Assembly: GCA_973895155.1 (NCBI GenBank) | Contig: OZ316892.1 | Span: 18,218,357-18,282,356, forward strand | Origin: Marsupella aquatica | Lineage: Eukaryota > Plantae > Marchantiophyta | Direction: 5' to 3' | Length of the DNA stretch: 64,000 nt | Part shown: piece after piece, positions 11,921 to 41,205 of the stretch | Layout of the letters: each line of letters starts with the position of its first letter | How positions within the stretch are numbered: position 1 is the stretch's first letter | Notes under the pieces: generated by a model | What the model saw: the letters and a program-made list of their open reading frames with translations, nothing else | What the model was told of the DNA's origin: nothing | Database searches by the model: none | Position numbers and translations under genes: made by a program

Positions 11921-13437
11921 GGGCCTGGTTTTTACTATAGCAACACGACGGCTACAGTACACCGAATCTTGCGGAGAAAAGCGTGGTGGTGTTCCTGTTC
12001 TTTACAAAACATGGAACGGAGATCGAAGATGCGCGCATTCGGGCCCCGCCCCCTGCTTCAATTGACGGGAGCCCGCGCTGATCCTTTTGAGAAGGCGATG
12101 GATCTGCACTGATTCCGTTGCAGAAAGTTCGTAACAATCAAAATCTCGTTCTGGTCGGCTGCTGCTTTTGTTGGGATCTTTAGGTCATTATCATGTAACT
12201 CGTGAGAAAGCTCTGGTGCGCCAACTGGTACGCCGTGGTCTGCAGACGTACTGGTGGCGAATTTGTTCTGGGAACACGGATGGGACCCTGGTTTTGATAT
12301 CGCATTGTTCGCTGCGGCTGTATGATGGTGCGTTCCAATTCTTGCATTGGTCCTTTTTTTTTCGTCCTCTTGCGTTCAGAACCTTAGGACTGGCGTAATT
12401 TGCCAAACGAATCATTGATAGCTCACTGGTGAGTTAGAGGTTGGACTAAGAAACTGCATTTGTCGATGCTGAGTGAAAAGTGCCATGCACATTGTTGTTG
12501 AGGCCCCGTCTCAGGCAATGTATCATGTCAGGTGGTAGCTCCTAATCTCACTGCGCCAGTTTGTCTAATTTCACTGGCTTGTAAGTAAATGGAAATTAAA
12601 TCCCTGATCTGACCAGCATCGCAAAGGTCACAGTAAATTTCTCAGTGAACCCACGGTCGAAATTGGCTTTCGGCTTTCCACACGTCTTATTAATGCTGAG
12701 CTCTAAATTTGCACTACGCAGCTCGTCGCATGAGTTGGTAGTTTTGCTTGGCCTGTGCCGGTAATGAAGGTGATGAGCGCAGCACAGTCATGATCTGTTG
12801 TGCTGCGCTCATCCTCTCTACTCAGTTCTATGACATGTCGTTCATGAACTGATTGTGTTGTCATTGTGTATTGACCTTATAATGGCTGGTCACTGCTAGG
12901 CTTTTGCATTTGAGGAATAATTGTCGGTTAAGACGAGAGGAGTGACTATTTCGGCGAGGGCCAGCTTAGATAGAGCTTTGGTGACCAGAATTATTCAATG
13001 TTAAATAACTGATAAATGTTTCTTGGGTCGGGTGCTATGAATGTGGTTTAGCGACCGCAGTTCTAGAATCCTAGGAAGAAGAGTTGGGGACCGATTACGA
13101 GCAAGTAAAGTAGTTCGGAAATGAAAGTGCCATTCTTGCCGTTCGAAAGGGTGAAAAAGCTTATGTATTGGGTGATTGATGGAGGCTGCGCTGTCACATG
13201 AACAAGACAAAGGAGAATGCTGTTCCGGTGAAGAAACAGTCTGGGTTTTTGGCGAATAGAGAGAAGGTTTCCGCATAGTGAGCAAATGGCAGTCAAATGA
13301 GCACAATAAAGTTTTGTAAGATTCTATGCCGTCCTCTACATAATATTCGTTAGCAGCACCGACAGATCTTGTTCGTGCCTGCCTTCAGATTTCTCTCGCA
13401 TTTGAGCTGACGAGCGACAGTAAAGGCTGTGAGGGAG

Positions 13438-17163: not shown

Positions 17164-17390
17164 TGAAGAAAAGGGTTCTTGACACCTTTTACTAAATCAT
17201 GAATGAATGACCAAAGAACACATGGTGGGCCTCGCATTAAATAACTTGTTGGATACACTCAGCAAGTGGGGCACCCATGGGGCCAGATGCCAAACCAAGA
17301 ACCTAACAACAGCTTCCAAGAACAATGCAACAACTTGTAAATAATTTTATACAGCTACATGGAGCGTAAATCCTAAGTAGAATTCCAACA
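17164..17390 (-). repeat. 3' LTR of the old Copia element
   Basis: Minus strand reads TGTTGGAATTC...TTCTTCA; preceded by the PPT at 17391-17406; homologous to 22453-22665. Confidence 0.9.
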
Positions 17391-17479
17391 CCCCCCCTCG
17401 CCCCTTAAGCTGTCATAGAATCAGGGAAGGAGTGATCAACACAGAATTGACAGAATGGTCACAGAATTATCTCTATGAA

Positions 17480-20400
17480 GATACATCTTTAATACCAATA
17501 GCAATGCGATGTTGCCTAAATTTGAACCAAGATAGAGCCTTGGTTAAAATATCTGCCGGCTAGCTGGTGGTCAGTCGATATGTATTGCAGTGTAATTTCC
17601 CCTAACAAGACTCTTTCTCGAATATAATGATGGTGAACTTCAATATGTTTAGTCCTAGCTTGAAAACAGGATTCTCAGCTAGTTTGATGGCTCCTTGATT
17701 ATCACAATGGACAGTGCGAGCAGAACTAGGAAGAGCGGATAAAATATCACTATCTGCGCATTGAAGTGGTACAGAGGCAGATGGTAAAATGTCCAGTTCC
17801 TGTAAAGACGGTGCATATAGACAGCTTCTTGAGCACCAGAGGACAAAGATAAATTTTCGGACTCAGTGGAAGATCACGGTGTGGTAGCCTGTCGTTTAGA
17901 AGTCCAGGCAACCGGGCTGGAACCAAATGTAAAAATGTAGCCACCAACAGACTTGCGAGTAGAAGGGCAACCAGCCCAATGAGCATCCGTATAACTTGTG
18001 AAGGTAAGATTTGACTTTCAAGGGTGCAGAATACCAAAGTCAATAGTGTGCTTGATGTATCAGAAAATATGTTGAGTAGTTTAGTTGTAGATGATCCATT
18101 TTGGGATGCTGCATGAATCAACTCACCATGCTGACAGCAAAGGCAATGTCAGGCCTAGTGTTGGTAAGATAAATGAGTTTTCCAACCATCCGACAATAAA
18201 GCTCTGGATCAGCATCAGGTGCTGAAGAATCTGCTGAAAGAGTCAACCCAGGGGGAAGAGGAGTAAAAGCAGCTGTACAATCTATCAGTTTAAATTCCTC
18301 TAGCATTTCGAGACAATAGCTTTTCTGATGCATCGTGATGCCATGCTCTGAAGTCTCAAATTCAATGCCTAGATATTTGCGAACAGGGCCTAGGTCCTTG
18401 ATACTGAATTTAGCTTGTAAGGCAACCTTGAGCTCAACAATCTTGGACACACTAGTGATAAAAAAAATTCATCCACGTGAATAAGGATGAGAGCGATGGT
18501 AGCAACAACCTTATAATAATAGAGATTTTTTTGTCCCATGAACTTAGTTGCCAGCCCAGATCTTGTAGGACCGAGTCCAAAGTCTCATACTAGGCCCGGG
18601 AGGATTGTTTCAAACCGTTGAGATTTATTGCGGAACAAACTTAGTGCTCAGCACTAGGAATAACAAACCCTCACCTGGAGGTTGTTTCATATATATACAT
18701 TCAGTTAACTTGTTGTTAAGATATTAAGCAGTGTCCACATCCATGTGGAAAGTGGTCCAACCTTGGGAGGCAGCAACGACAGTCATGACACGTAAAGTGG
18801 ACCACTTAACAATTGGAGCAAAAGTGTCAAAGAAATCAATGCCATGCCTTTGATAGTCCCCACGAGCAACAAGCCAGGCCTTTAGACGAGCATGAGTAGG
18901 GCTGATGGATTTTCTTTTATAGACCCATTTGCAGGGGATAGCCAATTTCCAAGAGGAAGGTGAACAAGAGTCCCAGTCTGTCGTTTATGTATGGACATGA
19001 TTTCTTCTTCCATGGAAGCATACCATTGGGGATGAGAGAGAGCTTTATGGAGGCTGATGTTATCACTGATGGGATCATCGGTCTCAATAGCACATGTGTT
19101 GATGTCAGTGGAAGTTGGAGTATGTAGCCCTCCATGCAAACATTGGGCTTGATGATTTGCCCAGAACTGCGATGTGGAGGAGAGGAAATAATGGGAGCAG
19201 GAACAGGTCAGGAAGGGGGAAAGGAAGATGAAGAAATATAAAAAATAACAGGCGATGTAGACAAAATGGTGGGACTTATTGAGGAAGGAAGAGATTCTGC
19301 GGCAAATACATCAAAGAATATGAGGGAAGGGGCAAACGATGACACCTTAAAATGTTGTTGTCAAATTGAACATCACAACTGATTAGGATCTTATTCTTCT
19401 CAGGAGAGAAACAACGATAGCCTCTCGTCTGCTTATCATAGCCCACAAGAAGAGCAGTATGAGACTTGATGTCAAGCTTGGTCCGCAGGTCATTGGGAAT
19501 ATGAACTGTTGGCGGGAACCCGGGTTCCTACCACGAATTCTGGCCCTCAAAGGACTTATTTATTTCTTTTCTGAGTGGCAAAATCCAGAAGCTAGTGCTC
19601 CAACAAGATTTGAACACAAATCCTCCTGATTGCAAGGCAGGACTCTGAACCACTGGGATAACCTAGTGATATGATTAGTTTGTGGTTGATTTTATACTTA
19701 AATTGTTTTAAAAGTCTTTATAACAGTGCAAACACAAGTTCCACACATGCGATTGTCACGCGAGTCCAAGTCGCCATGCGAGCAAAATGACAAACGACTA
19801 TTAAATTTTACGGGGAGCACAGTGTACACAGTCATAACGTAAACTCAACTTACTATGACTCTATGAGTGCTTGGAGCAAGGTGGACGCTGCAGAAGATGT
19901 TGTTCTTTGATCTGTGACAAATCTGAGTTTGATCCACTCTCGGGAAGGATATACTTCAGTGGAAATTGAGATACTTTGCTTCACATTGTTTCGGTTAATC
20001 ACGTAAACACAAGGGCAATGTGTGCAGCATGAACGAATGCATGCCAGCCCGAGAAGCTAGGGCACCTTGCTGTGGGAGAAGCTTTGCGGTCGCCGTCTGC
20101 TGGATTCCTGGAGCTATGGTGATCCAGATTTTTGACAGCCCTCTACTGGGGAAGCTGCAATGGCATTCGTTCTCTTGGAGAAGCTATGGCGGTGACCCTT
20201 TGGAGAAATCAGCTGGCAGTCTCAAACAGTCTATAAGGGCCCAATGTCAAGCTTCGATGGCGGCGAGACAGTCTAATCACAAAAATGTCAAGCCTGAACC
20301 CCACAAAAATGTCGAGCCTGATACAAAACGTTGCAGCAGGAAGTGGAGACTGAAACAGGCGCAATGTGTACTACCGGGGCTTTGAAACATTCCGTGGCGT

Positions 20401-22290
20401 TTTGGGTATAATAGGGCGCTGCCCTCACCCTTTTGGTCCCGACCCCCTAACAGCTTCGTGGCGGGCTTCGGGTTCCAATGGGAACCCGGGTGGTTCCCGC
20501 TAATAGGTTCATTATTATGTGGATAAGAAGTACAACCAATGATCCAGAGATGTTGGGCTTATGCCCAAATAATTTAATGTATGGAGAACTGAATGCAGAG
20601 CTCGGGTAGATGAATGATTGAAGAGATAGTTGGCCCTGTGGACCATTTCTTCCTAAAGAAATTGAGGAAGCTATGTCTCAAACATAAATTATGTGCCCCT
20701 TCAAGGAGGTCCAATTCTTCCGCTCACTAATGCCGTTTTGATGAGGAGTGTATGTTGCCGTAAAATGTGAATGAATCCCATGGACAGTATAGAAGCGGTT
20801 GAACTTATGGGAGTTATATTCCCCTCCCCTATCAGAACGTAAACAGCCAATGTGAGCCTGAAATTGATTCATAACTAAGGAACAAAAAACTTGAAATTCA
20901 TAGAATACCTCAGATTTACACACTTGAAAATATACCCAAGAGTACCGAGTAAATCCATCTGTGAAGGTGACAAAATACCAGGCCCCATAAATAGATGGAA
21001 TAGAAAAAGGTCCAGAAACATCACTGTGCACTAGCTCAAAGGGACGAGTGGTGTGGGTCCGACATTTCATGGGAATCCTTTCTCGGTCTGCTTGGCATGG
21101 ATGCACATGGAACAGAGAAGTTTGACATGAGGAAGGTGAGGAAGACCTTTGACTAATCCATGAGGAGACATGTGGTGCAATTTTTAGAAATTTATGTGCC
21201 CCATACATTTATGTCACATATCAACATGAGTAGATAGAAGCGAAAGTGATTGAACAGGGGAAACTGGAGGAACATGCGGAAAAGTAGATTCCACCTGATG
21301 GCACAAAAGATGAACTAAGACGTGATGACAAAAATAAAGAAGACAAAGAATTAGGGGGAACTACAGATTTGTCAGGTGGACCTCAATCCAAACGATAAAA
21401 ATGATTGGAAGAATCACGAGAGCCAATGAGAAAATCTTCTTAGCTTTATCCAACACAATGCAACGAGTGGAATTAAAATACACAATGTGGCCAAGATCAG
21501 CGAGCTTGCCAACAAAAAGTACACTTTTGCAAGTACACGGCACGTACAAAACATTTGAAACATATTTATTCTCATTGAAATGGATGCCCCCCTTGCCCTT
21601 GATGTCCAAAGCTGATCCCCCAGCAGTGGTCACGGTTGAGCGAGTAGACATCGGTACATAGTTGGAAAGAACATGCTTCTTTCCGGTCGGGTGAATGCTA
21701 GTGCCAGAATCAAGAAACCAATACTCATTAGGTTCTGTTTGATCTTAGAGAGATTACTTTCAATCGCCTAATCTCCAAAGACACCCTCATTGAAAGCGCC
21801 TTCATCAACATCAACAAATATTGATCAACATCAACAAATCTGAGGGGGGTTTCATCCTGGGAATGATTTATGACTGCCACAAGAAGCTCCACCTTTGTAG
21901 TAGAATTTTGAAGGACGTCTGCCATCTTTGGACTCAGACATATGCCGTCTGACCAGGGTATTAGCACCATATGCTCTCTTCAGCTTAGACCACAAAACTG
22001 TGGGATCTTGAACCATTGTAGAGTGACTCATAACAATATTCAAGATTGTTGAGGTAATTAAGAACATTGCTTTGCGCTTCCTGCTTTGTAACTCAGCACG
22101 GGTTGGAGGTTCCTTGACTAGCTTCTTGATCGTCAGACCCCTCCTCCTCAGATTCATGTGCCTCATCTTCTCCCTTCACAACATTCCATAGATTCTTCTC
22201 CACTAGAATCTGCTAAATAAGTAAGGACCAGATGGGGTAGTTGGACCCATCAAGTTTCTCTTCCTTGGTGTTCATGTAACAAAACTCCAT
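17480..22290 (-). pseudogene. Copia gag-pol pseudogene (many stops and frameshifts)
   Basis: Fragments: WFLDSG (PR), ELVHSDVSGPF / LRSDRGGEY / PHQNGISERKN (IN), CKWVYK...KAWLVARG...FDTFAPIVKW...HMDVDTA and KDLGPVRKYLGIE...TRPDIAFAV (RT), CDNQGAI...KHIEVHHHYIRE (RH). Confidence 0.9.
19507..20522. mobile_element. Non-autonomous insertion of about 1 kb nested in the old Copia integrase C-terminal region
   Basis: Interrupts the conserved GCTSY|VHIP peptide; ends carry inverted repeats (tgttggcgggaacccgggttcc ... ggaacccgggtggttcccgctaata); no coding capacity. Confidence 0.72.
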
Positions 22291-22435
22291 TGTTCCTTGA
22301 TTCACGACTACATCAGGTCTCACTTTGTCTTTTAGCTGTAGTTTGTAGTTAGGACTCATGAGACACTCTCTTAGTTATCCTATGCACTCAACTAATGTCC
22401 AGGCACTTGCTCCTGACACATAATACATACTCAGG

Positions 22436-22447
22436 GCTCTGATACCA
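22436..22447 (-). promoter_or_regulatory. Primer-binding site complementary to the 3' end of initiator tRNA-Met
   Basis: Minus strand TGGTATCAGAGC, a few bases inside the 5' LTR boundary. Confidence 0.9.
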
Positions 22448-22452
22448 TGTAT

Positions 22453-22665
22453 TGAAGAAAAGGGTTCTTGACACCTTTTACTGAATCATGAATGAATGAC
22501 CAAAGAACACAAGGCGGGCCCCACATTCAATAACTTTCTGGATACACTCAGCAAGTGGGCACCCACTGGGCCAGATGCCAAACCAAAAATCAAACAAAAG
22601 TTACCAAGAACATGGAACAACTTCTAAGTACAAAGGAGCGTACAATTCTAAGTAGAATTCCAATA
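22453..22665 (-). repeat. 5' LTR of the old Copia element
   Basis: Homologous to 17164-17390 with many substitutions and indels; terminal TG mutated to TA. Confidence 0.88.
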
Positions 22666-22949
22666 CTCAGGGTATACATAATTATGCCATTAGAGAGGTG
22701 TCTGCCGTCAGTGCCTTGTCCCTAATTCTCCTGGCTTTTTTTTAGCAAGGGTGCAGACCTTGGCCCACTTCCTACTTTGCACACCGCTCCGCAGACCGAT
22801 TTGAGGATTGTGCCCTAGTTAGTGGAGGTAGAGTTTTCTAGGAACTGGAGATTTTGGACATGCAATCCAATCCACAACATTTCCATCATGAGAAACTTTA
22901 GTGGAAGCGCTTATATGAGACTCCCTAACATGGGAAAACGAAGGGAGGT

Positions 22950-23990
22950 GACATGGATGGTAACCCATGGCCCCAAGGAGGTTATGGGTTGTAATCCCCA
23001 AGGGCAGTGAGTCAGCGGGTTTCCAGCCATGGCCCCCAAGTGGCCAGATGCTAACAAGCAGAACCCCCTCCTATAGTTTTTGCTTCATTTTTCTATGGAT
23101 GGATATGATTCATAACCCCTACCAGCCTGGTCCAGGGGTTATCAGATTTAGGCCCCAGTGACTAGCCCACCTCAAAGGTGATTAGAATTCAGGTGCCATT
23201 TTTAGTCCAAATGAAACAAATCTACCCTCAAGAGTTGCACTTGTTACCCCATGGCCACTCCGAGTCCATGGCTGTAACCTCCTCAGGGCCACCTTCCTTG
23301 GGGATTACATCCATAACTCCCTTGGATCCATGGATTACCCTACACCATAAACCCCTCTTGTAGTTTACATGTAGGGTACCGTTACCCCAGGCCCACCCTC
23401 AGGCCCACCATTTTTGGGGATTACATCACATAACCCCTTGGACCAATGGGTTGCCCTACATTGTAAACCCCTCCTGTAGTCTACATGTAGGGTACCGTTA
23501 CCCCAGGCCCACCCTCAGGCCCACCATCCTTGGGGATTACATCACATAACCCCTTGGACCAATGGGTTGCCCTACATTGTAAACCCCTCCTGTAGTTTAC
23601 ATGCAGGGTGCTCATTTTCCCAGGCCCACCATCCTTGGGGATTATATCTCAAATTTGTAAGAAATTGTCGGCTCAAAGTAGACAACAAATGCAGAACATG
23701 AGAGAGACACTTGATCCCATGCTACACCGAAGAGGCACCACAAGCAAAGAAGCTTGTGAGAGATCCATAATATATGAAAGTACATGTGAAGAATGAGGCA
23801 TAGAATGCTCTCCTTCAACCTACACCCCTAGGGGGCCGAGATGCGTTTGCCTAATCTAAGCGGATCTTATCCTACTGTAATCAAGGGTTAACTAACCCCA
23901 GTATGAGTCAAATCCTAACACCCATAACCCCTTGGACCCATGGGTTACCCTACGCCATAACCCCTCATGTAGTTTACGTGTAGGGAACCC
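22950..23990. repeat. Tandem repeats of about 120 bp (23285-23645) plus inverted and dispersed copies of a gggattacatc.cataaccccttggacc motif; probably a non-autonomous transposon interior
   Basis: gggattacatcacataaccccttggaccaatgggttgccctacattgtaaacccctcctgtag repeats directly; an inverted copy lies at about 22954-23003 and a direct copy at about 23920-23985. Confidence 0.8.
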
Positions 23991-26381: not shown

Positions 26382-28638
26382 AGATCAACCCTCGTGGTCT
26401 CAGTAACCGCGACCAGTGTGAGGTGAAGTAGTTGGTCTCCGAGGTAAAATTTTGACAAGTTTCTAGAGAGCAAATCGCATTTATTCGTTTACCAGAAAGC
26501 AGGGAAGAGTTGGTAGCGACTAGTGGGGAAAAAGCAAACAACTGAATTTCCTCCCCTATTGAAGAGTCACATAGTTTCTGGCTTGTCCCACGAAGAGAGA
26601 TTAGGAATGGTGTACCAGTATGTACTTTGTAGATTAGCACCAGCATACTTACGAGTATATATGGAGTGTGTGTGGAAGGGCACGATTTCTGCAGTTGTGA
26701 TAGTAGAATCTGAGGATAAGAAAGACCTTATCTACTTTGTTACTTCGAAATGAATTGAGGATTTGGGGATTTATCCAGAATCGTCAATTTCATGAAATGA
26801 CGAGTGATTTAAGTGTGATTGTTATCCTCTCTTTTTCACACGGGGGTTAGGGTCGTAAACTGTCAATCTCGATTTGAGATTAGTTGCGTTGGAGAGTTTC
26901 CGCAGAATCGACAAGAATTTTAGGGTGGGAGGAGTAATTCGAAATTTTATTAACAGTGACAACTGTAGGATCGTCAAATTCTTAAATGATTGATATAATA
27001 AATTGCTGTCAAGGTCAACCGCCTTATGACAGCATTATTTTTGTGTGTCTGAACTTCCACCCCTTCACCTGAATTTTCTGCACATCGGATTGTTATTTAA
27101 TGCAAGGAACAGAACCTTCTCTCTAGACCCACTTCATTCTCAAGCACAAGGATCAGGTCAGAGCTGCACGGCATCGAAAAATCATCAGATTCTCAAAGTG
27201 GCAACGAACGGAAGGTCAAATTTGTAAATATTTTTCGGGACTCGTCCTTTGTGAAAGATGAGGACTTTCAACTCTTGTGAATTCAACTCGAGTTTATTAA
27301 TTTCTCTATCACACATTTCTGTAACTTGGGTGGTGCACAGTAAACCCTTCATCGTGACAGTCGATGCAAAAGCGTTTGCCGATTTTCTCGTTCACTTGGT
27401 CAATTAAGGAAAGTTGTTCGAGGAAATGACTGATACGTAAGAATCTCTGATTCCAGAATATGACACCGGCCAATGAGGCTCCAAATGTTCAGGAATTCTG
27501 GATTGATGCCAACCTCTGGGTTTTCTATCGAGCAGTGGAGATCCGTGAACCACCACCTTCGTTACTGGATATGATGTCAGAATCGTATGAAACATCAACC
27601 ACGACCGACGGCCACTCCAACTATCGATTAATTAGGTTATGTGATTTCGCATTTTTGAATCCCTGTCAGTGAACTCACATAAATAGCATTTCTTCGTTGG
27701 CTTAAGAAGAGCGGTTTGTGCAACAATCCGCAGCAATCCATTTTGGCCCATGGAGCTGTAGAATTCGAGGTGGGTCTAAGAATTCCACCAATGATGATTG
27801 GATTTCAAGAGAAATTGGGTCTTCTCAGCTAACGGCTCACAGTACAGACGAGATTTTCGGTCGCTGGCTGACATTGAGCTACGCCATCACCTCGTTTACA
27901 ATGCTGTCGTCACTCTACTGAGGAACGCATTTCTACAGCGGCATTAGCGTGGCTTTGAAAGCTACAGAACCTCACAAAACTATGTCCAGTTGGGATTATC
28001 CCGGAGATCCATCACCCACCACTCTCCCTCGCCCGTCGAGCCTTCTCCTCTCGCACTCTAGCTAGCCTAAGACCTCCTACCCTTCATTGCAAGTCAACTA
28101 CAGAACAGCACTGGAGCCTGAAGCAAGCAGGTAGTCAGCCTGTCCCTTAAAAAATGCCATGGTCAGAAATTTGCGCTGGCTGCAAATAGTGCTTGCCTGG
28201 CAGTCAATATTGCCAGAGAAGGTGGAACCGATTTCAAGTCGTGTTCATGCAACTGCACGCTTATCCAAAACTTCCTTGTTTGTTGGATCAGGAGCAACTG
28301 AAATCGTGTTGACGAGATTTTGAAGATGACGAGTTTCTTGGCTTTCATGTGGATATGTGTGAGCAATTTGTGGGGCAGTGCTCTACTCGAGCGTAGCATC
28401 AAGTCAGAGCCGCATGCCACTGAAAAGGAAATTGCCGAGTGCTCAACAAGTACAGAAGAGCCGTGTAAAGAAAATCTTGATTTCTATATAGATGGACGCT
28501 ACGCACGAGTGAAGTGATCATTGATCGTATAAAGGGAGGTATCCTGGGGAAGAACAGTTATCTATTAGAACGCTAGTTACGGAGCAATCTACTGGGGAAG
28601 TAAGGACATTCCTGCCAGAGTCTACAGCAAATTCTAGT

Positions 28639-28888
28639 CATCGGATAATAACAACTCAACTTTAGGGGACTGGAGAGGAAGACTTGAAGGGTACCAAATC
28701 CTATCTTGTCTGAAAGAAAGCTAGTAGCGTCTGCTTCTGGAAAATTGTTTCATCTTATGACAGACATCGGATAATAACAACTCAACTTTAGGGGACTGGA
28801 GAGGAAGACTTGAAGGGTACCAAATCCTATCTTGTCTGGAAGAAAGCTAGTAGCCTCTGCTTCTGGAAAATTGTTTCATCTTATGACA
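28639..28888 (+). repeat. Recent 126-bp tandem duplication (2 copies, 2 visible mismatches)
   Basis: catcggataataacaactcaactttaggggactgg...gtttcatcttatgaca at 28639 and 28765. Confidence 0.92.
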
Positions 28889-30837
28889 CGGATCACTGGT
28901 CTGAAACCGCAAATCATCTACCACCTCCTCTGGCAATTTTGAAGGCATAACTACTGCCTAAGTGGAGAGGATGTTTCGTCTCAATCGCGCTGATGACCAC
29001 ACTACTACGGTACCTTTACGATGCCACACTTTGTCTTGCATCGAAGCTTTAAAGCATGTTTAGGGTCGTCAAGATCCCAAACAGCATCAATTCGAAGGCT
29101 ACAGTTGAATCCCGAGATCTTACGCGGATTTTACCTCATTCGCCCAATGGTGAACATATAAAGGCCCCTGGAAAAGAAATTTCAGAACTGACCATGTACG
29201 GAGCTCCAAGGAGTAATAGTTCTCCAGATTCTGAATTAATGAATGGTTTTTTAAAGAGCGATTCTCTAATGGCACACCCTGTTTGCATATTTTGCTTCCC
29301 GTTCTCTTGTTTCCATTGCAGACAGTCAATTTTGCGTGCATCCCATTCATCAGGCAGGGTCACAACGTGCACGAGATCGCAGCACTTCTCCCAAATCTGC
29401 ACCATGGTGACCATCGTCAGTGACAGCTGATTTCGGCGACTTTAGAAGCACACTTCTGAGCAATCAAGAGAAGCAGAACTTCCTATCTAGACACCCATCG
29501 AATGCTAACGCCGTCTAGCGACACGGAGCCTCCCGAACATGTGCGCTACATCTGCACAACATCGCGGCCGAGAGCAAGTGTAGCAAACATTCGTGCGTCC
29601 AGAAGTACATAAGGTATCCCTGTCCGGATAGATTCACTCCAGAGGTGGATCTGATTCATAATGTGCGGAGGGCCAATGGAATCCATCTCCAACAGTAACA
29701 ATTACTAACCACAATCAAGTGTATTTTCCGTCACGAGACTCGTGACTGTCCAGGTTTTCGTCACCTTTGTTTTCTTTCGCGTTAGCGGGAGAGCTACTGA
29801 AACAAATCTGCTGATTCGTGTCAACTCAATTGAGATCTCTCGAACTACGAAATTGTCCTTGGATTTTTACGCTACAGAAAATGACTTTTGTAATCTACAA
29901 TTTCTACATATAACTTATTTACGATGTTCTAGTCTAATGACTGCTCAAACAACCTTAGCACAATTACCGTGTCATTTCCTGTCTTCCGGCTTCTGCTCTG
30001 CGACTGGGTTCAAATTTCCGTCCTCCTTGGTACTGTAATCATGTGACCCTTCTGCCATCGGATGCAGTTACGAACTTACGATGATTGTGTTTCAAACTTG
30101 TTACGTCATGGTACGGTAATCTTGCTTCTGTCCTCTGTCAGGACACTTTCTTTCAATTCTCATCCAACTTCCAACTGTCTTCCCTTGCTTCTTCCTGCAG
30201 AATGATCGTTTGTCTAGATGATATATTCTTTTGTCCAATTGTCCAGAACTTTCGTCTAAAAGAGCGGGCCAACATCACGCGCGAAGATGCTATGCTTGCT
30301 CGATTGAAAGAGCGAACCCGAAATCCAGAATGACATCGTCATCGACTCTACTCCGTCTGACCGGGGTGGCTTCCCAAGGATGCAGCTGTCTGATATTGGG
30401 ACAGCAATTTTTGAATTTTGACCAAGCGTTCGTTTTTCGAGAGACGGAGATCAATGGTGGAGAGGCCACTCTAACAAATCAGCAGAGAGGGAAACAGACA
30501 CCGAAATCGCCGACAATCTGTCGGCCTGAATGGGATACCGGGCCGCTCGACTGGCTTCCAAAATACGACTTTGGGAGGTACAGTACCGTAGATTCTCCGA
30601 ATTTCGAGATGACGCCATACCACAACCGAGCAATACAGTAGAAAGCCCTCCCACAGTGTTGTACCCTAAAAGCTCTACCCGTACATCGCTACATAGTGCG
30701 TGAGAATTCAGAATCATCAGGACTTGACGGCCTCCGACTCCCAGTCCGTGAACCTCGCTAATCAGACAAGATCGTGGCCCTAAAATCCTTGCTCGAAATC
30801 TGGTTCCGCCGTGATTCCTCTCATCCTTTCACAGGAC

Positions 30838-31017
30838 ATCTCCAAGCTCACCGAATTCTGGACCCCCTTTGCTCCAAATCCAGCGACTTCTGGACACCTT
30901 TTGCGCGCATAGCTCCAGGGTAACCGAATTCTCCACCCCCTTTCTCCAAATCCAACCAACTTCTGGACACCCTTTGCGGGCACAGCTCCAAGCTCACCGA
31001 ATTCTGGACCCCTTCTG
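30838..31017 (+). repeat. Tandem repeat array (unit about 70 bp) split by the young Copia insertion; continues at 35611-35725
   Basis: ctccaagctcaccgaattctggacccc..gctccaaatcc..cgacttctggacacc..tgcgcgca.ag units lie on both sides of the element. Confidence 0.82.
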
Positions 31018-31159
31018 TGTTGGAATTTAGCATACTTAAATCTCGCTGACCGGGATTAATTAGGACAACCAGGCTCCCTTTGTTTAAGGTGGGCTGCCTG
31101 GTTATATTAGGCACGCTGCGTGCAGCTCTTGTCCGCTCTGTGTAGTCTCGCTGGAACTC
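31018..31159 (+). repeat. Truncated 5' LTR of the young Copia element
   Basis: Matches 35354-35495 up to ...ctggaactc, then jumps into gag-pol linker sequence. Confidence 0.92.
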
Positions 31160-31250
31160 CTATCTTGCCACCGAAGGCACCGACTTAGGTGATAGCGACT
31201 CTGACAAAGGTGAGGATAGTGGGTCTAAGTCTGCACTAACCATAGAGGCC

Positions 31251-34200
31251 ATGTTAACTGAATTTGAATCAGGAAGCTCTAGCAAAGCACAATCCTGGAT
31301 ATTAGATTCAGGAGCATCGACTCACATCTCCCATGATAAGGAGTCATTCTCAAAGCTCAGCGCCATTAAGTCAAATGGCACCAATGTTTTGACGGCAAGT
31401 GGAACCAAGCTGCCTGCATCTGGCACTGGCCACATCAAGATCTCTGGCAATAAAGTTCTCTCTGATGTTTTGTACGTGCCGGGAGTAACTAGGAACTTAA
31501 TGTCAATAGGGAAGCTAACCGATAAGGGTCACACTGTCGTGTTCAACTCCGACTACTGCTACACAATGGACCATCGAAAACCCTTTGAGACATTTCTCAA
31601 AGGATTTCGAGATCCACACAATAGACTATATCGTCTCAATTTACCGCAGTGTCCCGACCTCGATGGTATCGACTCCACTCGCACCTACGACACAAGCCGT
31701 CTCCTCAAACACCGACACATGGCAACAACATGCAACATGATCGAGTCGATATCCACTCCACAATCAACCTGTGAGCTTTGGCACAAGAGGACCGGTCATG
31801 CCAGTCTTCAATGGCTAAATTACATGACAAAAAATCAACTCGTGAACGGTACTCCTATGATACCACTGTCCCACCACCTTTGCGGAACCTGTGTCCAAGA
31901 GAAACATCATCGACAGAAGATTCCCAAAGCATCATCCCATAGGTCAACTCGACCACTTCAACTTTTACACACCGACTTGTGTGGACCTCTTCCTGTGGTC
32001 ACCCCGCATGGACATCGGTACATTATGACCATTACCGATGACTATTCACGTCACTCTTGGGTTTACTTGCTCAAAACCAAAGACCAAGCTTTTGACACAT
32101 TTAAAGCCTTCAAAGTCCAAGTCGAGACACAGTTCCTTCACAAAATCTCATGTCGTCGGAGCGACCGCGGAGGAGAGTTTCTATCTCATTCTTTTACACA
32201 GTACTTGGCAGCTCACGGCATCCGACGTCAGCTCACAGTCGCCAGTACGCCTCACCAAAATGGAGTTGCAGAACGCAAAAATAGAACACTTCTCAACATT
32301 GTTCGTAGTCTCTCTATTGGGTCAAATATTCCTGCCTTTCTATGGGGAGAACTGGTTGGCACTGCCAACTATCTCAACAATCGCTGCAGCACTCGGGCAC
32401 TCAATCAAAGCACTCCCTATCAAGCTCTCTTCAATGAGAAGCCCTGTCTAAAACACCTTCGTATCATTGGCAGTACTGCCTTTGTCCATGTCCCCAAACA
32501 TCTACGTCACAAACTTGGAGCCCGATCTATTAGATCCGTTCTAGTCGGTTACGATCAACAAAGCAAAGCCTACCGTTGTTACGACCCAGCTCGCCGATGC
32601 ATTCTTATAAGTCGTGATGTAATAGTTGATGAAACCACACCTGGGGACTTCTCCTCCGTACCCCATTCATCTATCAGTCTCTTTGATATATTTTCTTCTG
32701 ATGACCAAATATCATCAACCCCATCTCCACCTCAGGAGGGGGACTCCGCACTAGAAAGAGAAGAAACAGAAGACATGGGGACTCAAGCAGAAAATCAATC
32801 GGAAGATCAAGAAGTACAGGAGCCACTCCAGCATACTCCAGATATATCGGCTCCATCAATCACCACACGACTACTCAAATCCAGGCCTCTACCGCCACGC
32901 CGACCTCCTTCCACTCGAATCAGGTCAGATAATCACCGTTTTTTGGGTCATCATATGTATGTTGCAACCGCAAATCAGGATATTGCCATTGCACTACTAG
33001 CTGACTCTTCAAACGACATTCACCTTGAAGACGCCATCCAAGACACGCAATGGAGAAAAGCAATGAAATCAGAGATGGATGCTCACAAACGCAACGGCAC
33101 ATGGGATTTGGTTCAGCTTCCACCTGGTGAGAAATCGCTCTCTTCCAAGTGGATTCTCAGGAATAAGATAGATCATGAGGGAAACATCCGACACAAAGCA
33201 AGAGTAGTGGCCAGAGGGAATGAGCAAAGACCAGGACTGGATTTTCAGGAAACGTTTGCACCAGTGGTGAGATGGTCCACTGTAAGGCTTATAGTTGCCT
33301 TAGCTGCTGCGTACGGATGGCCAATCTCTCAAATGGACGTGGTAACAGCCTTCTTGAATGGAACAATCAAGGAAACTATATTCATGGATCAACCAGCGGG
33401 TTTCGAAGTCAAGGGGAAGGAGAATCTAGTATGTCGACTTCTCAAATCCATATATGGACTCAAGCAAAGTCCACGAGCATGGTATGATGAGGTAGATTCC
33501 TTTCTTCGTTCAATTGATTGTGAACGAAGCTCACTAGATCCAAATCTCTATGTGTGTAAAAGGGATGGAGAATTAGTAGTGATATTGCTGTTTGTCGATG
33601 ACCTTCTCATCACTGGTACCAGCAAGGATCTGATCAATCATCTCAAGGCCAAGCTGAGCGCGAAGTACGAAATGAAAGATCTAGGGCCGGTGAAAAGATA
33701 CCTCGGGGTGGACTTCTTGGTGAATAATCAAGGAATACTCATGCATCAAACTGAGTACTCGACACAGTTGCTGCGAGACTACAATATGATCGAGTGCAGA
33801 CCAACCAAAACTCCACTTCCCGAAGGGCTCACACTCTCGGCTGAGACTGGCACCAGCAATATCGACTCAACAGCATATTGTCAACTTGTAGGAAAACTCA
33901 TTTACTTGACCAATACAAGGCCCGACATCTCGTTTGCAATAGGACTTGTCAGTAGATTTATGTCTCAACCCCAACAAGCTCATTGGGAAGCAGCAATTCA
34001 CATCCTCAGGTATATCAGCAACACCAAAGACCTTGGGATATTCTTTCAACAATATCCCGACATTAAGCTACAAGGATTCACAGATTCAGACTGGGGAAGC
34101 TCATGCTCCGATACGAGAAGGTCAACGGGAGGGTACCTGTTTACCCTTGCCTCAGGACCGATCACATGGAGCAGCAAGCGCCAACCCACGGTGTCTAGGT

Positions 34201-34652
34201 CAACCACTGAAGCTGAGTACCGGGCGTTGTCAGACGGAGCTCAAGAGGGTGTCTATTTGAAACGTCTTATAGAGGAGCTCCGACAACAAAAACTAACACC
34301 GGCCAATATAAAGTGCAAGGATGCCAAGATTGCATCGGATCTCTCAACTGCTCATATACCCACTCAGCAGGACGTGCACCTAAGCTGCGATAACATCAGT
34401 GCATTGAAGCTGGCCAAAAATCCTGTCTTCCATGCAAGAACCAAGCATCTGGAAATTCATCACCACTTCATACGAGAGCGAGTACTAGCTGGTGAGCTTT
34501 CAATTCAACATGTCTCTACACATGATCAACCAGCCGACATCCTCACAAAGGTTCTACCGAGAATCAAGTTTGAGCATCATCGGCAAGCAATCGGAATGAG
34601 GTCAGCAAAAGAACTTGCAACGATCGAACCATCTTCAATTATAACGCGGTGA
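31251..34652 (+). CDS. pol: Copia Pol polyprotein (PR - GAG-pre-integrase - IN - RT - RNase H), 1133 aa, uninterrupted
   Basis: WILDSGAS (protease); WHKRTGH...CGTC; HTDLCG / RSDRGGEF / NGVAERKNR (integrase DDE); QMDVVTAFL, YGLKQSPRAW, LFVDD (RT); FTDSDW, TEAEY, CDN, ADILTK (RNase H). Confidence 0.96.
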   Translation: MLTEFESGSSSKAQSWILDSGASTHISHDKESFSKLSAIKSNGTNVLTASGTKLPASGTGHIKISGNKVLSDVLYVPGVTRNLMSIGKLTDKGHTVVFNSDYCYTMDHRKPFETFLKGFRDPHNRLYRLNLPQCPDLDGIDSTRTYDTSRLLKHRHMATTCNMIESISTPQSTCELWHKRTGHASLQWLNYMTKNQLVNGTPMIPLSHHLCGTCVQEKHHRQKIPKASSHRSTRPLQLLHTDLCGPLPVVTPHGHRYIMTITDDYSRHSWVYLLKTKDQAFDTFKAFKVQVETQFLHKISCRRSDRGGEFLSHSFTQYLAAHGIRRQLTVASTPHQNGVAERKNRTLLNIVRSLSIGSNIPAFLWGELVGTANYLNNRCSTRALNQSTPYQALFNEKPCLKHLRIIGSTAFVHVPKHLRHKLGARSIRSVLVGYDQQSKAYRCYDPARRCILISRDVIVDETTPGDFSSVPHSSISLFDIFSSDDQISSTPSPPQEGDSALEREETEDMGTQAENQSEDQEVQEPLQHTPDISAPSITTRLLKSRPLPPRRPPSTRIRSDNHRFLGHHMYVATANQDIAIALLADSSNDIHLEDAIQDTQWRKAMKSEMDAHKRNGTWDLVQLPPGEKSLSSKWILRNKIDHEGNIRHKARVVARGNEQRPGLDFQETFAPVVRWSTVRLIVALAAAYGWPISQMDVVTAFLNGTIKETIFMDQPAGFEVKGKENLVCRLLKSIYGLKQSPRAWYDEVDSFLRSIDCERSSLDPNLYVCKRDGELVVILLFVDDLLITGTSKDLINHLKAKLSAKYEMKDLGPVKRYLGVDFLVNNQGILMHQTEYSTQLLRDYNMIECRPTKTPLPEGLTLSAETGTSNIDSTAYCQLVGKLIYLTNTRPDISFAIGLVSRFMSQPQQAHWEAAIHILRYISNTKDLGIFFQQYPDIKLQGFTDSDWGSSCSDTRRSTGGYLFTLASGPITWSSKRQPTVSRSTTEAEYRALSDGAQEGVYLKRLIEELRQQKLTPANIKCKDAKIASDLSTAHIPTQQDVHLSCDNISALKLAKNPVFHARTKHLEIHHHFIRERVLAGELSIQHVSTHDQPADILTKVLPRIKFEHHRQAIGMRSAKELATIEPSSIITR

Positions 34653-34709
34653 TACACTTCTGAATCCTCGTGGAATTCTCTTGGTAAACATGCTGTCTAG
34701 TGCCTTCAC

Positions 34710-35195
34710 CTAAACCATTCGTCTTCCACCAGTCCGACCAAGCAGACTAGTCTCACGGCTCAAATACTCTTCTGCCTCAGATCGACTTCTAAACTACTTA
34801 AACTTGTTGCCTCTGAATCCTGAGACTTGAGGCTGACACTCCTCCCACGATAAGTAGATGCCTGGTCGAAATCCAACCACTACTGCATAATAGCGCCGCG
34901 GCGGCATCTCACTTAGGCCAATTGGGCTGTCTAGCGGAGGAGCATGGACTGAATCTGACGTTCGACTTGACACTGCTGTGACATCTGGCACTGCTACAAG
35001 TTCTTGAGACTGCCGCTTCTCGTTTAGCCTTGATCCATTCACCGTTTCTGAACGACTGTCGCCAGCAGAATCTGCTGGCCCCTCAGCCGACTGCAACGAC
35101 CTGTGTAGATATTGCAGGAATGTAGACACGAATCCCATCACTGCCAGCAGCAAGAAGATACATGATTCTCGCAGTGTGATATTCTCCTGGGCCAT
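34710..35195 (-). CDS. Antisense accessory ORF of the Copia element: hydrophobic helix, disordered linker and RNase H1 N-terminal hybrid-binding (Cauli_VI/viroplasmin) domain; in-frame TAG at 34794-34796
   Basis: MAQENITLRESCIFLLLAVMGFVSTFLQYL...PPRRYYAVVVGFRPGIYLSWEECQPQVSGFRGNKFK*FRSRSEAEEYL matches the recalled domain consensus YAV..G..PG(I/V)Y.(S/T)W.EC..QV.GF.G..(Y/F)K.F....EA...L on both sides of the stop. Confidence 0.85.
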
Positions 35196-35353
35196 CTTCC
35201 CCCTGCTTGACACTCACTCGACTAGTCTTTGATCGAGCTCACTACCCATCGGGGTGCATTATCAACCTTACCGCATATTGAATGAGTAGATTCTCCACCT
35301 CACCTTTATGACAGCTGTGTCTGAGTTTCTATCGAGCCTAGCTCGCGAGGGGG

Positions 35354-35610
35354 TGTTGGAATTTAGCATACGTAAATCTCGCTGACCGGGATTAATTAGG
35401 ACAACCAGGCTCCCTTTGTTTAAGGTGGGCTGCCTGGTTATATTAGGCACGCTGCATGCAGCTCTTGTCCGCTCTGTGTAGTCTCGCTGGAACTCTCCTG
35501 TCCAGTCATGCTTTCCTTATCGACTGGTATTCTGCGGGACTGTCTCGTCCCGGACCTGTACTTAATGACCCATCGTTAGGGGACTAATATACATGAGAAA
35601 ATTTTCTTCA
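35354..35610 (+). repeat. Complete 3' LTR (257 bp) of the young Copia element
   Basis: TGTTGGAATTT...TTCTTCA, bounded by the PPT and the TSD. Confidence 0.93.
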
Positions 35611-37796
35611 TTCTGCTCCAAATCCAACGACACCTTTCTCGCGCACAGCTCCAAGCTCTCACCGAATTCTGGAACCATTTCGCGTCAAATTCAGCAATTT
35701 CTGGACACCCTCTGCGCGCCTTTGGGGGGAATCGTCTCAAATTCAGGAATTGACAATCTGACATCAGGAATCCTTCGTCGGAACTGTACGTTGTTTTCGT
35801 CTCCAACGAAGAGGACAGTGGTAATAACGCGCCAAACCTCAATAACGTTTCTGTTATTCCCTTTCTTGAAAACCGCAACTTGTACCGCGGTACAGTCCCA
35901 TTTGGCCATTTCCCTCACGTAGACTCTGCAACGCTTTTGCTCGTACTGCATTGTACAGTACTTTGTTTTTGCCAAATCATTTTCAACTCTTTTTCCACTC
36001 TTTTTATTTTTATTTTTATTCTGTTCCTTTTTCCTTCGCGCTTAGAAGACAAACCCAAATTTCAAATCCAAATTAAGTTCATAATTATGTTACTTTCTTT
36101 AATTAACGCGAGACAAGTAGAAGACAAATCTCAAAATGCATTGTCTTCCATAAAGTTCAAGAATATAGAAAGTAAAACACCTTGGGATTTAAGTTCTTGG
36201 AGGCATTTTGAAACTTGTACTCTACTTGTCTAAACGATAATAGGGATTTAAAATATCTGGGGATTAATATGTATTAACTTCTTGCTACTAGGGGCCTCAA
36301 AGTTTGGGAGAAACTCCTCACTTTGGGGCATTAGGGAGTCTCAAACCTCAAAATTTGATGGACCTTAGTTTGAAAACATTAAAAACTACCAAATTCATGA
36401 TACATAACTTTTTGTGATTGTTTTCAGAACTAAAAACTAGCAAAATTTCAGGGGAAAGGAGACCAAAAAAGGGCTACCATGGCCAAATGATTCATAAAGA
36501 CTGATCATATGTCATGACCATAAGTCATTGTAGAGGCTAGTGAAAAAATGGTTTTACAAAACCCATCTGTGAGAAAGGTATGGTCATTTGTTTGTGGCCA
36601 AAACGATAATCAGTAACTATACTATGAAGCTCTGAGAGTCCCTATTTATATTCCACAACGAAACGGGCATGAAACGACGTTCCCACTGATGTAAGGAGTT
36701 GTGTTACTCGGTAAAGAGACAGTTTTCTGTACAATAATAATAATAATAATGTGGCTCAATTGCGGGCGCAGTCATGCAACTCAGCAACTCCATCTCTACA
36801 ACGTGCCAAGGCAGCGAGTTCTCAGTGACTCAGTGTTCACTCGTGATTTCCCGACAGATTCGCCTCTGGAAGCCCGCAAACCACGCTGCTCAATCAGTTA
36901 CGTTTCATTTCCTTAAAACTGGGAAATCAGGCTTTTCAGTATGGCAGCAGAGAAATCATCATCACCACTAACATTCTTCTGCGAGTTAAATTCTCCACAG
37001 TCGCCCATGTTCTCCTCCGTCAGATCTTCGAGAAGGCTGACATGGCCACACTTGGGCCGTCAGATTGATGGAATTCTTATTTTTCTCGACCTCGGTCCTA
37101 TCTGTGGCACTTTTGGACGGACGCACGGGTTTTCCGAGTGCCGGACGGACGTGCATCGGTTCCCGGACTTTGCTCAGGTACTTTGTCTGTTGCAGTGTTG
37201 GGGAGTCAGTCACTTGAGGTCTCCAGCTCTTTGAGTCACATGACTAGCGTTTTCTCTAGTGTCGAATTTCGCCAAATTCAAGGGCGAAATTCAGGGGATA
37301 AATTTCGCCAAAATTTATCTTTCCTTTCTTTGTGTCTAAGAGTATTGAGACCACTCTTTAACTGCCGTGAAGCCTGACTACTCAGGGGACTACTCAGGGG
37401 CTTCAGGCATGAAATTCTCTGTGTATGATATGAGGGCGACTACGTGCAAGACAACTCTTAAAAAAACGTTACACACGAGCCTTTTTCGTTTGAGGCTATG
37501 GAGCTCACCTTTGAGAGCGGTCGTGGACGGTCTTCGCAAGCTCGGACCGAAGCGTTGAATGGATGAATCACGTCCCATATATTCCTCGTCCACTACCGAA
37601 ATCGAGCGAGCGAGCGCAGTCATGATGGCGGATCGTTTCATTTTCTGTGCGGGGTGCGATACGGTACAGTCGAATGAGCACGGTCTCCCAGATACGGTGA
37701 GCAATTAATTGAATTGAGAAGATAGTGAGAGAGAGAGCTTGTGACAGTGGTGACAGGCCGGGGGGCAGAGAGCTCGAGATTCATAGAGAGAGCGAG

Positions 37797-39542
37797 ATGT
37801 TGCTCGAGATGGCATTGGCAGAATTTTCAGACGAGCGGGACTGGAACGTGTGGAGTGGCAGCAGCAGCCCTGAACCTGGAGAGAGCCCCGTTGACTCACC
37901 TCCGCGCCGATTGTACCACTCCCCCTACGAGAGAGTAGCATCAGGTAGCAGATTGGATTGGGGGAGACATAACAACGAGGTAGAACTGGGGAGCAAGAGC
38001 AGCAGTAATAGAAGTTTGCAACACCAGGTCAGCGCGGACGTCGAGGTTGAGCAGGATTACCCATCACGTTTACACACATTACAAAAAGTGTCTGTCGCTC
38101 GGAGAGAGGAGCCGTCGTTGCATCGTATCACGTCGAAGGAGACATTTTATTGGGACGAGGCTGTAGAAAGCGTGCCACTTGAATGGGAGGATTCTCCCGG
38201 GAGGTCCAGGATGGTGCAGGAATCGAGATCTTTCGGCAGATCTAGCCATCCTGAGCCCCTACCGTTGCCTCTAGCCTTCCGGCCCTTATCTATTACTAGT
38301 CCTAGATCGTTCCGCACTATTGCGAGTCCACTTCGAGGAGCTGCTAGTCCACTTAGGGGAGGGAGTGGGAATGGGATAGGAGGGAAAGTGAAGAGCATTC
38401 TCAGTGGTAAAGCTCCAACGAGCAATGTGAAGGAGAATGTGAAAGAGGACACCTACGCAGCTTTTCCTGAGAGGGCAGCTTTTCCTGAGAGGACAGCCAA
38501 CTTCGCAGTTTTCCCTGAAAGAACAGCTTTGCCTGCTGAGAGGGGAGCTCCTGATTTTCCAGGGCGTGGACGAGCAGATGTTGATCGAGTACAGTCCGAT
38601 TCATCAGACGATGGGGAAGGGACATCGCCTGTAAGCACACTGGATCTCCCAATGAGTCCTGTTACTCCCTCATACCTCACTCCCACATATTCTCCCCAAC
38701 AACAAGGTCCTCAACTAGGACATGAGAGTGTGATCAGGAGACAACAGGCCAAACTGATGCAGGCCAGGCCCCTGCCAACCAGCCATTGGACAAACACGCT
38801 CATGTCTGAAGAGCTTCCCGCGGTCATGGAGGAAGATGAGGAGGAGAATGTCGATGTGGAATCCGTGTATGGTTACCACACGATGGAGTTTCAGACAATC
38901 GAGAGCAGCCCTTCGACTAGTGAGGATCACCGCTCAGATTGGAGAATGTCCGGAAGAGATCACGGTCCTTCGAAAAGTTGGAGCGCTCCAAATTCTCGTC
39001 AGAACAGCTCACTGAGACCCCCGGGAGCACAGAGTCGCGGTCGCAGAAGATCCGACTTCGATTGGCCGGAGGATTTCGAGGAGCGGCCGGAAGAAGTCGT
39101 GAAGGAGGTTGATGAGTCTCTCTGGGCCTTCTCTCCCGTAAATTCCACGTTCGTCTTCTCTGGCAACGATAACAACACGGCTGATAGTAGAGGCCGTTCG
39201 CCTGCCGCGCCTCGAGTTAACGGTGGTCTTACGCCTCCCACAGCCTCCCCTGGCTTAGGGTCCTTGTTAGACCTCAAAACCCTCAAGACAAGTATAGTGA
39301 GATCTGCCTCTTCAAAAGCGAGAAAATCAACCGAAGTTGAATTCCCGAGGCAGCGATCCTCTCGATTACGACAGTACAACGTCAACGGTGACAATGAATA
39401 CGCCTCCGGCCCAATGAAGAGATCATATTCCTGCCTGGTAAGTTGCCACACTGTCGTTTCCATCATTTTCTTTTTCGCAATTGCCCATTGCTATTGTATG
39501 ATTTTTACTTTTTTGTTTTAGCAAGGATCTGCTACGTGGTAG
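37797..39542 (+). CDS. Ser/Pro/Arg/Glu-rich, probably disordered protein of unknown function; exons 37797-39437 and 39522-39542 (about 553 aa)
   Basis: Open frame of about 1.7 kb with first ATG at 37797; strong donor CTG|GTAAGT and acceptor TTTTAG give the C-terminus ...SYSCLQGSATW*; no recognisable folded domain. Confidence 0.72.
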
Positions 39543-40963
39543 AATGTTCGTGCGAGGTCTGAAGGTACTTGTAAGACGTGAATTTGTCGCTAGATTAATT
39601 CCTAACGCCAAGGACCTCTATGTCTCTGTGATCGCTTGCGCTGCAGCCATTCTTCTCGTTGTGCAGTACACAGAGACCCACAGCGATCAGTTTTTCACAG
39701 CGTCTCGCCCCCACTCTCTCCAATGTGAGCAACTGACGTCCGCTTCATGCTGCGTACCGCATCGACAGCATTCTCTGGCAGGTAACGATCTCGATGAGAA
39801 AACTTTTCCCGATACTCTCTGCGTCATATCCAAGTCGCTACGACTGAAGCTGAATTAATGAATGAAATGGGTGACAGACGTCAATTTAGTTACGCAATTT
39901 TTTCAGAGGAACACTATTTCGTAGGAATGGCATGCCGAGAGTGATAAAGACTAGACTCTATCGCCACGTACCCCCCATGTCCCTTTCGACCGCCACCCTC
40001 GTCCCTGAGCGGAGAAGGGCAATAAATTTCTTGCAAACGAGCAGTTAAGGGCAATTGTGACATACCGCCTGATGCCGTCATGAATCGTACACTGATCGAC
40101 TACTGTTGCAGTCTAGCTATAGACCGAGCAGTTTGCCATTGCGTTTGCCTCTGGCAAATCATTCTTTGATATGATCTTACTCCACTCAACTGCAGTCGTT
40201 TATAATTCAATTCTGATGCATGCGACCCCTATTTTTTTTCATTTTTGTCTTCGATGTTTGGAGAAATTCAATCGTTAAACAGTTACCATCTTCGCATGTC
40301 AACCGACTGTGTGATCAAAGTACTAAATGTAGTGAGTAGTACCTTAATCACGGAGTTTATTCCAGTAATTTCATGTTGCTGGTGCCCATTTAGTGATATT
40401 GTAATGAGGATTTTGTAATGAGTCACACGCCTTTCCGCACATTGCAGAGTCCTAACAGATGCGTGGCATGTTGGCAGGTGCCTGAAGGATTTCGTACCGC
40501 ACAAGTGCCACTATCTTCACAATGAAACTGTGAATACTAAGTTTTGCTTCACAAGGATCATCCTATGTTGCGATAAGAACAATGGGGTTTTCTGATCGTG
40601 GAGTTCATTCGCGCTCTAGGAATTCATCCTTGGTCTTACATCTATTGCGACACATCTCGTTCTCCTCTGAGAATCAAGGTGTATTACAGTACACAGATAT
40701 TCAGGATCTTTCTTGAATTCAACCGAACGGAGAGAATTATCGCAGGAGAGATCCAGGATTGCGCTTGAATCTCTCCGCAAACGCAGTTCGTCTTTCGTGA
40801 CTGGACTACCAGCCATGAAAACTACGCATCAAGGCAAAACCCTCCGGCGGGTATGTAAAGCTGTGACGGCTAGAAGCTAGAAAGCTGATGTATCTATGAC
40901 TCGTTCTAGAAAATGAAATTCTTTTCTTTAGATGATGCGTGACGATCCCGTGACAATCTCTAA

Positions 40964-41205
40964 AGCGACCTTGTGAATTGAAATGTGTGACAGCACACCG
41001 CTGTGATGTTCTTTCTTGCCATTTCTGAGGAATGCGTGAACTGTGCATTGTCTTCACGGACTGGATTGCAGTTGGTGTTACAGCGAGCTTGTGAATTGAA
41101 ATGTGTGACAGCACACCGCTGTCATGTTCTTTCTTTCTTTCTTGCCATGTCTGAGGAATGCGTGAACTGTACATTGTCTTCACGGACTGGATTGCAGTTG
41201 GTGTT
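40964..41205 (+). repeat. Tandem duplication of about 120 bp
   Basis: cttgtgaattgaaatgtgtgacagcacaccgctgt...cacggactggattgcagttggtgtt occurs twice. Confidence 0.88.

Follow-up and report, generated by a model that had tools for sequence, protein, structure and literature searches.

The locus studied here is a young Copia retrotransposon that spans positions 31018–35610 of the window (the whole 64-kb stretch of Marsupella aquatica DNA that was analysed), is flanked on both sides by TTCTG and carries an antisense open reading frame (ORF) between pol and its 3′ LTR (Table 1). The element belongs to Ty1/Copia, with the domain order protease, integrase, reverse transcriptase (RT), RNase H (RH), LTRs bounded by TG...CA, a 5-bp target-site duplication (TSD) and a polypurine tract (PPT). 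Its pol stop codon (34652) is separated from the 3′ LTR (35354) by 701 bp. A preliminary description of the sequence had given the same pol stop, the 257-bp LTR and an interval of about 700 bp, all of which were recovered; it had overlooked the truncated 5′ LTR and the missing primer-binding site (PBS) and gag. The 5′ LTR is broken off after 142 bp and abuts sequence just before the protease, and the window copy thus lacks both PBS and gag. This copy is young yet non-autonomous and, with a stop codon inside the hybrid-binding domain of its antisense ORF in addition to the missing PBS and gag, it is dead. The element landed in an array of 73-bp tandem repeats (30836–31017 and 35611–35723), and the empty site of this insertion is present in one of the sequencing runs described below (run X1).

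Table 1. Features of the young Copia element and of its antisense ORF (positions in the window)
Feature	Positions	Strand	Basis
Left TSD TTCTG	31013..31017	+	Repeated on right side
5′ LTR remnant, first 142 bp	31018..31159	+	Differs from the 3′ LTR by 2 mismatches
Copia pol: protease, GAG-pre-integrase, integrase, RT, RNase H	31160..34652	+	Open frame, without gag
Antisense accessory ORF, 161 codons, internal stop at codon 134	34710..35195	-	Frame translation
RNase H1 hybrid-binding domain (HBD, Cauli_VI), codons 101–144	34764..34895	-	Pfam, PDB sequence matches, overlay of the P0004 model
Linker, variable, acidic, predicted disordered, codons 35–100	34896..35093	-	pLDDT <50 in homologue P0004
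N-terminal amphipathic helix, conserved, codons 8–34	35094..35174	-	Homologue alignment, periodicity
Polypurine tract GAGGGGG	35347..35353	+	Read from the sequence
3′ LTR, 257 bp, TG...CA	35354..35610	+	Sequence comparison with the 5′ remnant
Right TSD TTCTG	35611..35615	+	Matches left TSD

The antisense ORF starts at an ATG at 35195, ends at a stop codon at 34710–34712 and is interrupted by an internal TAG at codon 134 (34794–34796); both the start and the translation agree with the preliminary description, which had recognized in it the N-terminal HBD of RNase H1. Within the 158 nt that precede this ATG are three short frames with ATGs of their own. When the TAG is read through as X, the Pfam profile Cauli_VI (PF01693) matches over its full length (1–44 of 44) at residues 101–144, with an E value of 3.7e-19 and a score of 69 bits (gathering cut-off, 21 bits), and the part that precedes the stop matches profile positions 1–33 of 44 by itself (E 1.6e-13). 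The only PDB sequences matched by the ORF are the HBDs of yeast and human RNase H1 (3 distinct sequences). Neither the window ORF nor any of the ten homologues described below has a Pfam domain other than Cauli_VI, and all of them lack an RNase H catalytic domain. The protein is thus like the RNase H1 HBD (PF01693; PDB 3bsu and 1qhk) in its fold and in several key aromatic and basic residues, and unlike RNase H1 in having no catalytic domain, in carrying its HBD at the C terminus behind an amphipathic helix, and in a family-specific proline. A search with the family profile found no second copy of the ORF family within the 64-kb window. A sigma-70 promoter scan was set aside, the host being a eukaryote.

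Elsewhere in the window, a coding stretch for a PIG-M mannosyltransferase lies at 14673–15308 on the plus strand (PF05007, E 1.4e-40), and a plus-strand open frame of 602 codons at 37713–39521, rich in Ser, Pro and Arg and with no Pfam match, is likely to be a host-gene exon. Tandem arrays occupy 3667–5448 (period 312), 11546–11921 (about 95/190), 23281–23630 (116), 28636–28888 (126) and 40961–41205 (126 bp). An older Copia element on the minus strand (17164–22666) is frameshifted, has a tRNA-Met-type PBS and LTRs that are about 89% identical to each other, and shares its first ten LTR bases with the young element.

Sibling copies of the young element were sampled from four sequencing runs (X1–X4), which carry two species labels, derive from two studies and are in no case recorded as RNA. 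The runs were picked by the presence of the ORF stretch, so that copies lacking the ORF were not favoured, and run X3 matches the window flanks exactly and may be the source of the window, so that it is not independent. The ORF is present in sibling contigs of all four runs compared. Contigs that bridge pol and the HBD, and that differ from the window by 2–3.4%, occur in X2 (record 14, 34276–34921) and X3 (record 20, 32782–34901), and an X4 contig (record 29) covers the stretch from 35231 to 30 bases inside the LTR. Three sequence types are found in X3 over 34892–34976. In run X1 the site of the window insertion is empty (joint 31015–35633), yet the run contains the ORF, so its ORF copies are located elsewhere. 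The bridging contigs in X2 and X3 and the presence of the ORF in four runs bear out the earlier proposal that the domain is carried by an element family and not by the window copy alone.

Codon 134 is a sense codon in every contig aligned over that site in the four runs (some records were left out of the alignment). The remaining 25 differences among siblings comprise 10 synonymous changes, 14 residue-changing ones and 1 new stop, one sibling having a stop of its own at 34964. Under a null that keeps the same base changes, 7.6 synonymous differences are expected against the 10 found (P=0.20). The preliminary description had looked to dN/dS across sibling copies as a measure of conservation: the ORF is indeed present among them, but the synonymous excess is not significant, either overall or by region. 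At this depth of divergence the siblings show ordinary post-insertion decay, and selection is not measurable. Over the HBD region 34810–34844, loose ends in runs X1–X3 reveal a more diverged and apparently degenerate copy, and older members of the ORF family therefore exist in those genomes.

Conservation becomes visible at greater distances. A single-sequence search returned 2 of 38 candidates and a profile search 102 of 5558, which included four further members; a search of 1.84 billion representatives gave four new full-length members in the best 150 of 10,883 matches. The ten homologues, nine Logan proteins and CAM6101554.1 of the liverwort Calypogeia fissa, are 125–251 amino acids long and, where this was computed, 31–48% identical to the window protein. 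Across the 55 pairs of the 11 members, identity averages 60% for the HBD, 27% for the helix and 16% for the linker, the length of which ranges from 39 to 91. An N-terminal M-A-x-E/G is common to the window protein, P0004, P0012, P0147 and P0215. The helix is kept in nine of the ten homologues, P0013 being without most of it, and P0006, which has no equivalent of the Trp, may be degenerate. Because the helix and HBD are constrained and the linker is free, the pattern is that of a translated protein under selection, and the alignment indicates that helix, linker and HBD form a real protein family that extends beyond the window copy. In the AlphaFold model of P0004, a helix (residues 8–43) is followed by a disordered linker (45–97, pLDDT <50) and then by the HBD, which overlays human 3bsu at 0.6–0.7 Å across 45–47 residues.

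Further matches fall outside this core. P0014 and P0164 form a distant subfamily with a C-terminal CxxC motif after the HBD and a more polar helix, and in P0145, P0161, P0220 and P0242 the HBDs are in tandem and joined to a PIF1-like or UvrD helicase. In a tree of HBDs (11 family rows and 60 others over 53 columns, the others chosen by means of a family-built profile), the family rows all fall to the same side of a weak branch (85), and the tree names no donor. The ESM Atlas returned fungal Cauli_VI clusters only when searched with the whole protein, and no usable match when searched with the helix alone.

The four nearest relatives of the pol gene, three of them from the leafy liverwort C. 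fissa, are 63–68% identical to it in RT–RH; a quick tree (41 rows) groups them with the window element at an SH-aLRT of 100. In the older Copia of the window, which has no extra 3′ ORF, the interval from the end of pol to the PPT measures about 95 bp, close to the figure of about 100 bp given earlier, from which a gain of the ORF in one sublineage had been judged probable. Such a gain is plausible, but the two elements are only about 46% identical in RT–RH, which makes the older one a weak control with little information on when the ORF arose. Divergence within the ORF family suggests that the gain was old.

Besides its nearest relatives of pol, C. fissa has an ORF homologue (CAM6101554.1). 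Its three pol matches, found among 10 of 2198 that were looked up, lie on contigs other than that of this homologue. That this species has members of both the ORF family and the pol clade closest to the window element fits shared inheritance without amounting to proof. Neither Copia pol nor the family helix was found in any of 90 loci (10 viral-contig loci and 80 metagenome loci, the latter kept from 134), and the matches in both scans were HBD-only. One of the candidates there, L074, turned out to be a bacterial RNase HI. Spare sequence behind gag-pol was rejected as a sign of the ORF in relatives, since unrelated elements leave 0.1–1.7 kb there too. The distant homologues probably also lie in Copia elements.

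Our best reading, which we hold tentatively, is that the protein would serve replication of the element itself as an adaptor without catalytic activity; provided that the family is element-borne, this role would stand close to an even chance. In this model, a Copia family carries between pol and the 3′ LTR an antisense gene for a helix, a variable linker and an HBD without a nuclease. The helix would cluster the protein, either through self-association or by resting on the surface of a membrane; the HBD would grip the element's duplexes of RNA:DNA or structured RNA, and genomic RNA and reverse-transcription intermediates would thereby be concentrated in cytoplasmic foci. We infer both the expression of the antisense gene, for which the preliminary description suggested antisense promoter activity of the 3′ LTR as a possible driver, and duplex binding by its HBD. 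Reverse transcription occurs inside the Gag particle, so an adaptor outside it would have to be packaged or to work earlier.

It is unlikely, in our judgement, that the family is instead a host gene or the gene of another transposon, of which one Copia family captured a now-decaying copy. In favour of capture, a Cauli_VI gene has been taken up by a fungal Helitron (PMC4289320). The non-significant synonymous excess and the two copies with stops would also suit a passenger, although stops are common in inserted copies. Against this, the ORF is intron-free, runs from ATG to stop and occupies most of the 701-bp gap, transduced genes are mostly in sense orientation (PMC7264820), and, in place of a single conserved host orthologue, there are many diverged singletons whose linkers change fast.

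In this role the protein would match, in minimal form, the N-terminal half of the caulimovirus protein P6/TAV. Both are accessory proteins of a reverse-transcribing plant element, with an N-terminal region and a variable segment ahead of Cauli_VI (dsR/MAV), and domain A of TAV mediates self-assembly (PMC5734791). The best fold matches in BFVD are caulimovirus TAV proteins, several of them aligned over 150–210 columns and some across both helix and HBD; these long alignments have an r.m.s.d. of 14–40 Å, and any N-terminal helix could produce them. By contrast, TAV is 420–540 amino acids long, with extra RNA-binding and zinc-finger parts that bear silencing suppression, whereas the protein here is only about 150–170 amino acids long and is encoded antisense in a Copia element. 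Full-length TAV has MBD, RNA-binding and zinc-finger regions, and sequence similarity to it was found in the HBD only. A stronger version of the parallel, in which a liverwort Copia 'mini-viroplasmin' builds replication foci and LTR retroelements have repeatedly recruited a stand-alone HBD as a replication cofactor, seems rather doubtful.

The same parallel had led the preliminary description to propose an anti-silencing function through sequestration of double-stranded RNA (dsRNA) or RNA:DNA. As a decoy, the protein would keep such duplexes of the element away from Dicer-like enzymes or the host's RNase H1, which would shield the element from silencing. The presence of a binding domain without a catalytic partner would suit such a role, the dsR domain of cauliflower mosaic virus (CaMV) binds hybrids and dsRNA in vitro (PMC5902531), and domains captured by Gypsy elements can counter host control, as exemplified by an m6A demethylase (PMC9289625). 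In CaMV P6, however, this domain is a TOR-binding one, and P6 suppresses silencing without it, through other parts of the protein (PMC5902531); the anti-silencing idea loses weight accordingly. Just one HBD is present, and antisense transcription would itself yield dsRNA (PMC7264820). We regard the decoy as less probable still than capture of a passenger gene.

The preliminary description had further called the protein membrane-anchored, which is not supported in that form. Hydrophobicity along the helix has a period of 100 degrees (shuffle P=0.0004, ten members), Glu or Asp lies in the middle of the helix (column 21) in four members, and an uncharged run of at least 21 residues occurs in only five of ten (P0002, P0004, P0005, P0006 and P0215; 21–27 residues), the other five having runs of 6–17 residues. 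The mid-helix acids and the short uncharged runs imply that membrane spanning is not the conserved property. The conserved trait is an amphipathic helix, suited to a helical bundle or a membrane surface, and spanning is possible in some members only. The window ORF resembles the env-like ORF of SIRE and the transmembrane sORF2 proteins of insect elements in being an extra ORF of an LTR retrotransposon with a hydrophobic segment. SIRE ORFs are sense, however, neither they nor insect sORF2 have been described with an HBD in the accounts consulted, and the helix of the window ORF is amphipathic; its antisense orientation and the occurrence of a spanning-length run in half of the ten members set it apart from env-like or transmembrane ORFs. 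A true anchor, in which a transmembrane helix tethers duplex intermediates, or else a self-restriction factor that limits the copy number of the element, is therefore improbable, although the longer uncharged runs, Kyte–Doolittle maxima of about 2.0 in the four close members tested and the small transmembrane accessory proteins of insect LTR elements (bioRxiv 10.1101/2025.03.14.642691) speak for the former.

The binding surface of the human HBD includes W43, F58, K59 and K60 (PMC6846478). The equivalent of W43 is present in 10 of 11 members, that of F58 as F or Y in 10 of 11, and that of K59 in 9 of 11; the K60 equivalent, the second Lys, is missing in all ten homologues, and 169 of 219 other HBDs are also without KKF. 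The numbers Y29, R52 and R57 were also used in this comparison. The family-specific Pro is found in 11 of 11 members as against 9 of 219 other HBDs, whereas the net charge of the family HBDs is like that of others (mean +1.1 versus +0.8). Conserved surface features such as this invariant Pro could point to a protein-interaction module that, like the dsR/MAV domain of TAV, contacts host TOR or ribosomal partners, boosting translation of the element RNA or blunting autophagy, with nucleic-acid binding secondary, but the retained contact residues, the ordinary charge and the single gag-pol ORF of Copia, for which reinitiation is unnecessary, make this the least probable of the readings considered.

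Antisense ORFs between pol and the 3′ LTR (aORF-3R or eORF-3′R), of unknown function, have been described as gene23 of Grande, in RIRE2, as the TRP28 ORFs of Retand, and in Ogre, Athila and Boty (PMC7264820, PMC11963269). The window ORF occupies the position that defines aORF-3R and is like these ORFs in lying between pol and the PPT, in being antisense and in its presence in sibling copies (PMC7264820, PMC11963269). It differs from them in its host element: aORF-3R is found mostly in Gypsy OTA elements (47–86% of Athila, Ogre and Retand), and the window ORF lies in Copia (PMC6317226). In the REXdb survey, extra ORFs were reported for 1% of SIRE elements and for no element of most other Copia lineages, the rows for Bianca and Ikeros being incomplete (PMC6317226). 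That survey took extra ORFs of at least 250 codons, so an ORF of 161 codons would escape it (PMC6317226). The term 'pfam01693' does not occur in the five supplements of PMC6317226 that were searched, and an HBD is not among the domains named for aORF-3R in the text consulted of PMC7264820 and PMC11963269. According to the main text of a study of 121 angiosperm genomes (PMC9289625), the 15 frequent extra domains are confined to Gypsy elements. No report of an HBD or Cauli_VI ORF in Copia was found in the literature consulted, on which the supplements of PMC9289625 and two of those of PMC6317226 may also bear. What is new, then, is an HBD-bearing antisense ORF in Copia; antisense accessory ORFs as such are already known, mainly from Gypsy.

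The antisense ORFs of plant LTR retrotransposons have gone without a known function for decades, largely because interpretable domains were missing. Such ORFs have hardly been reported in Copia, and those of fewer than 250 codons were too short for the main plant survey to count. The domain carried by the ORF in the window is a nucleic-acid-binding module of solved structure whose contact residues are known, which opens it to direct tests of function; the ORF also places Copia elements in parallel with caulimovirus P6.
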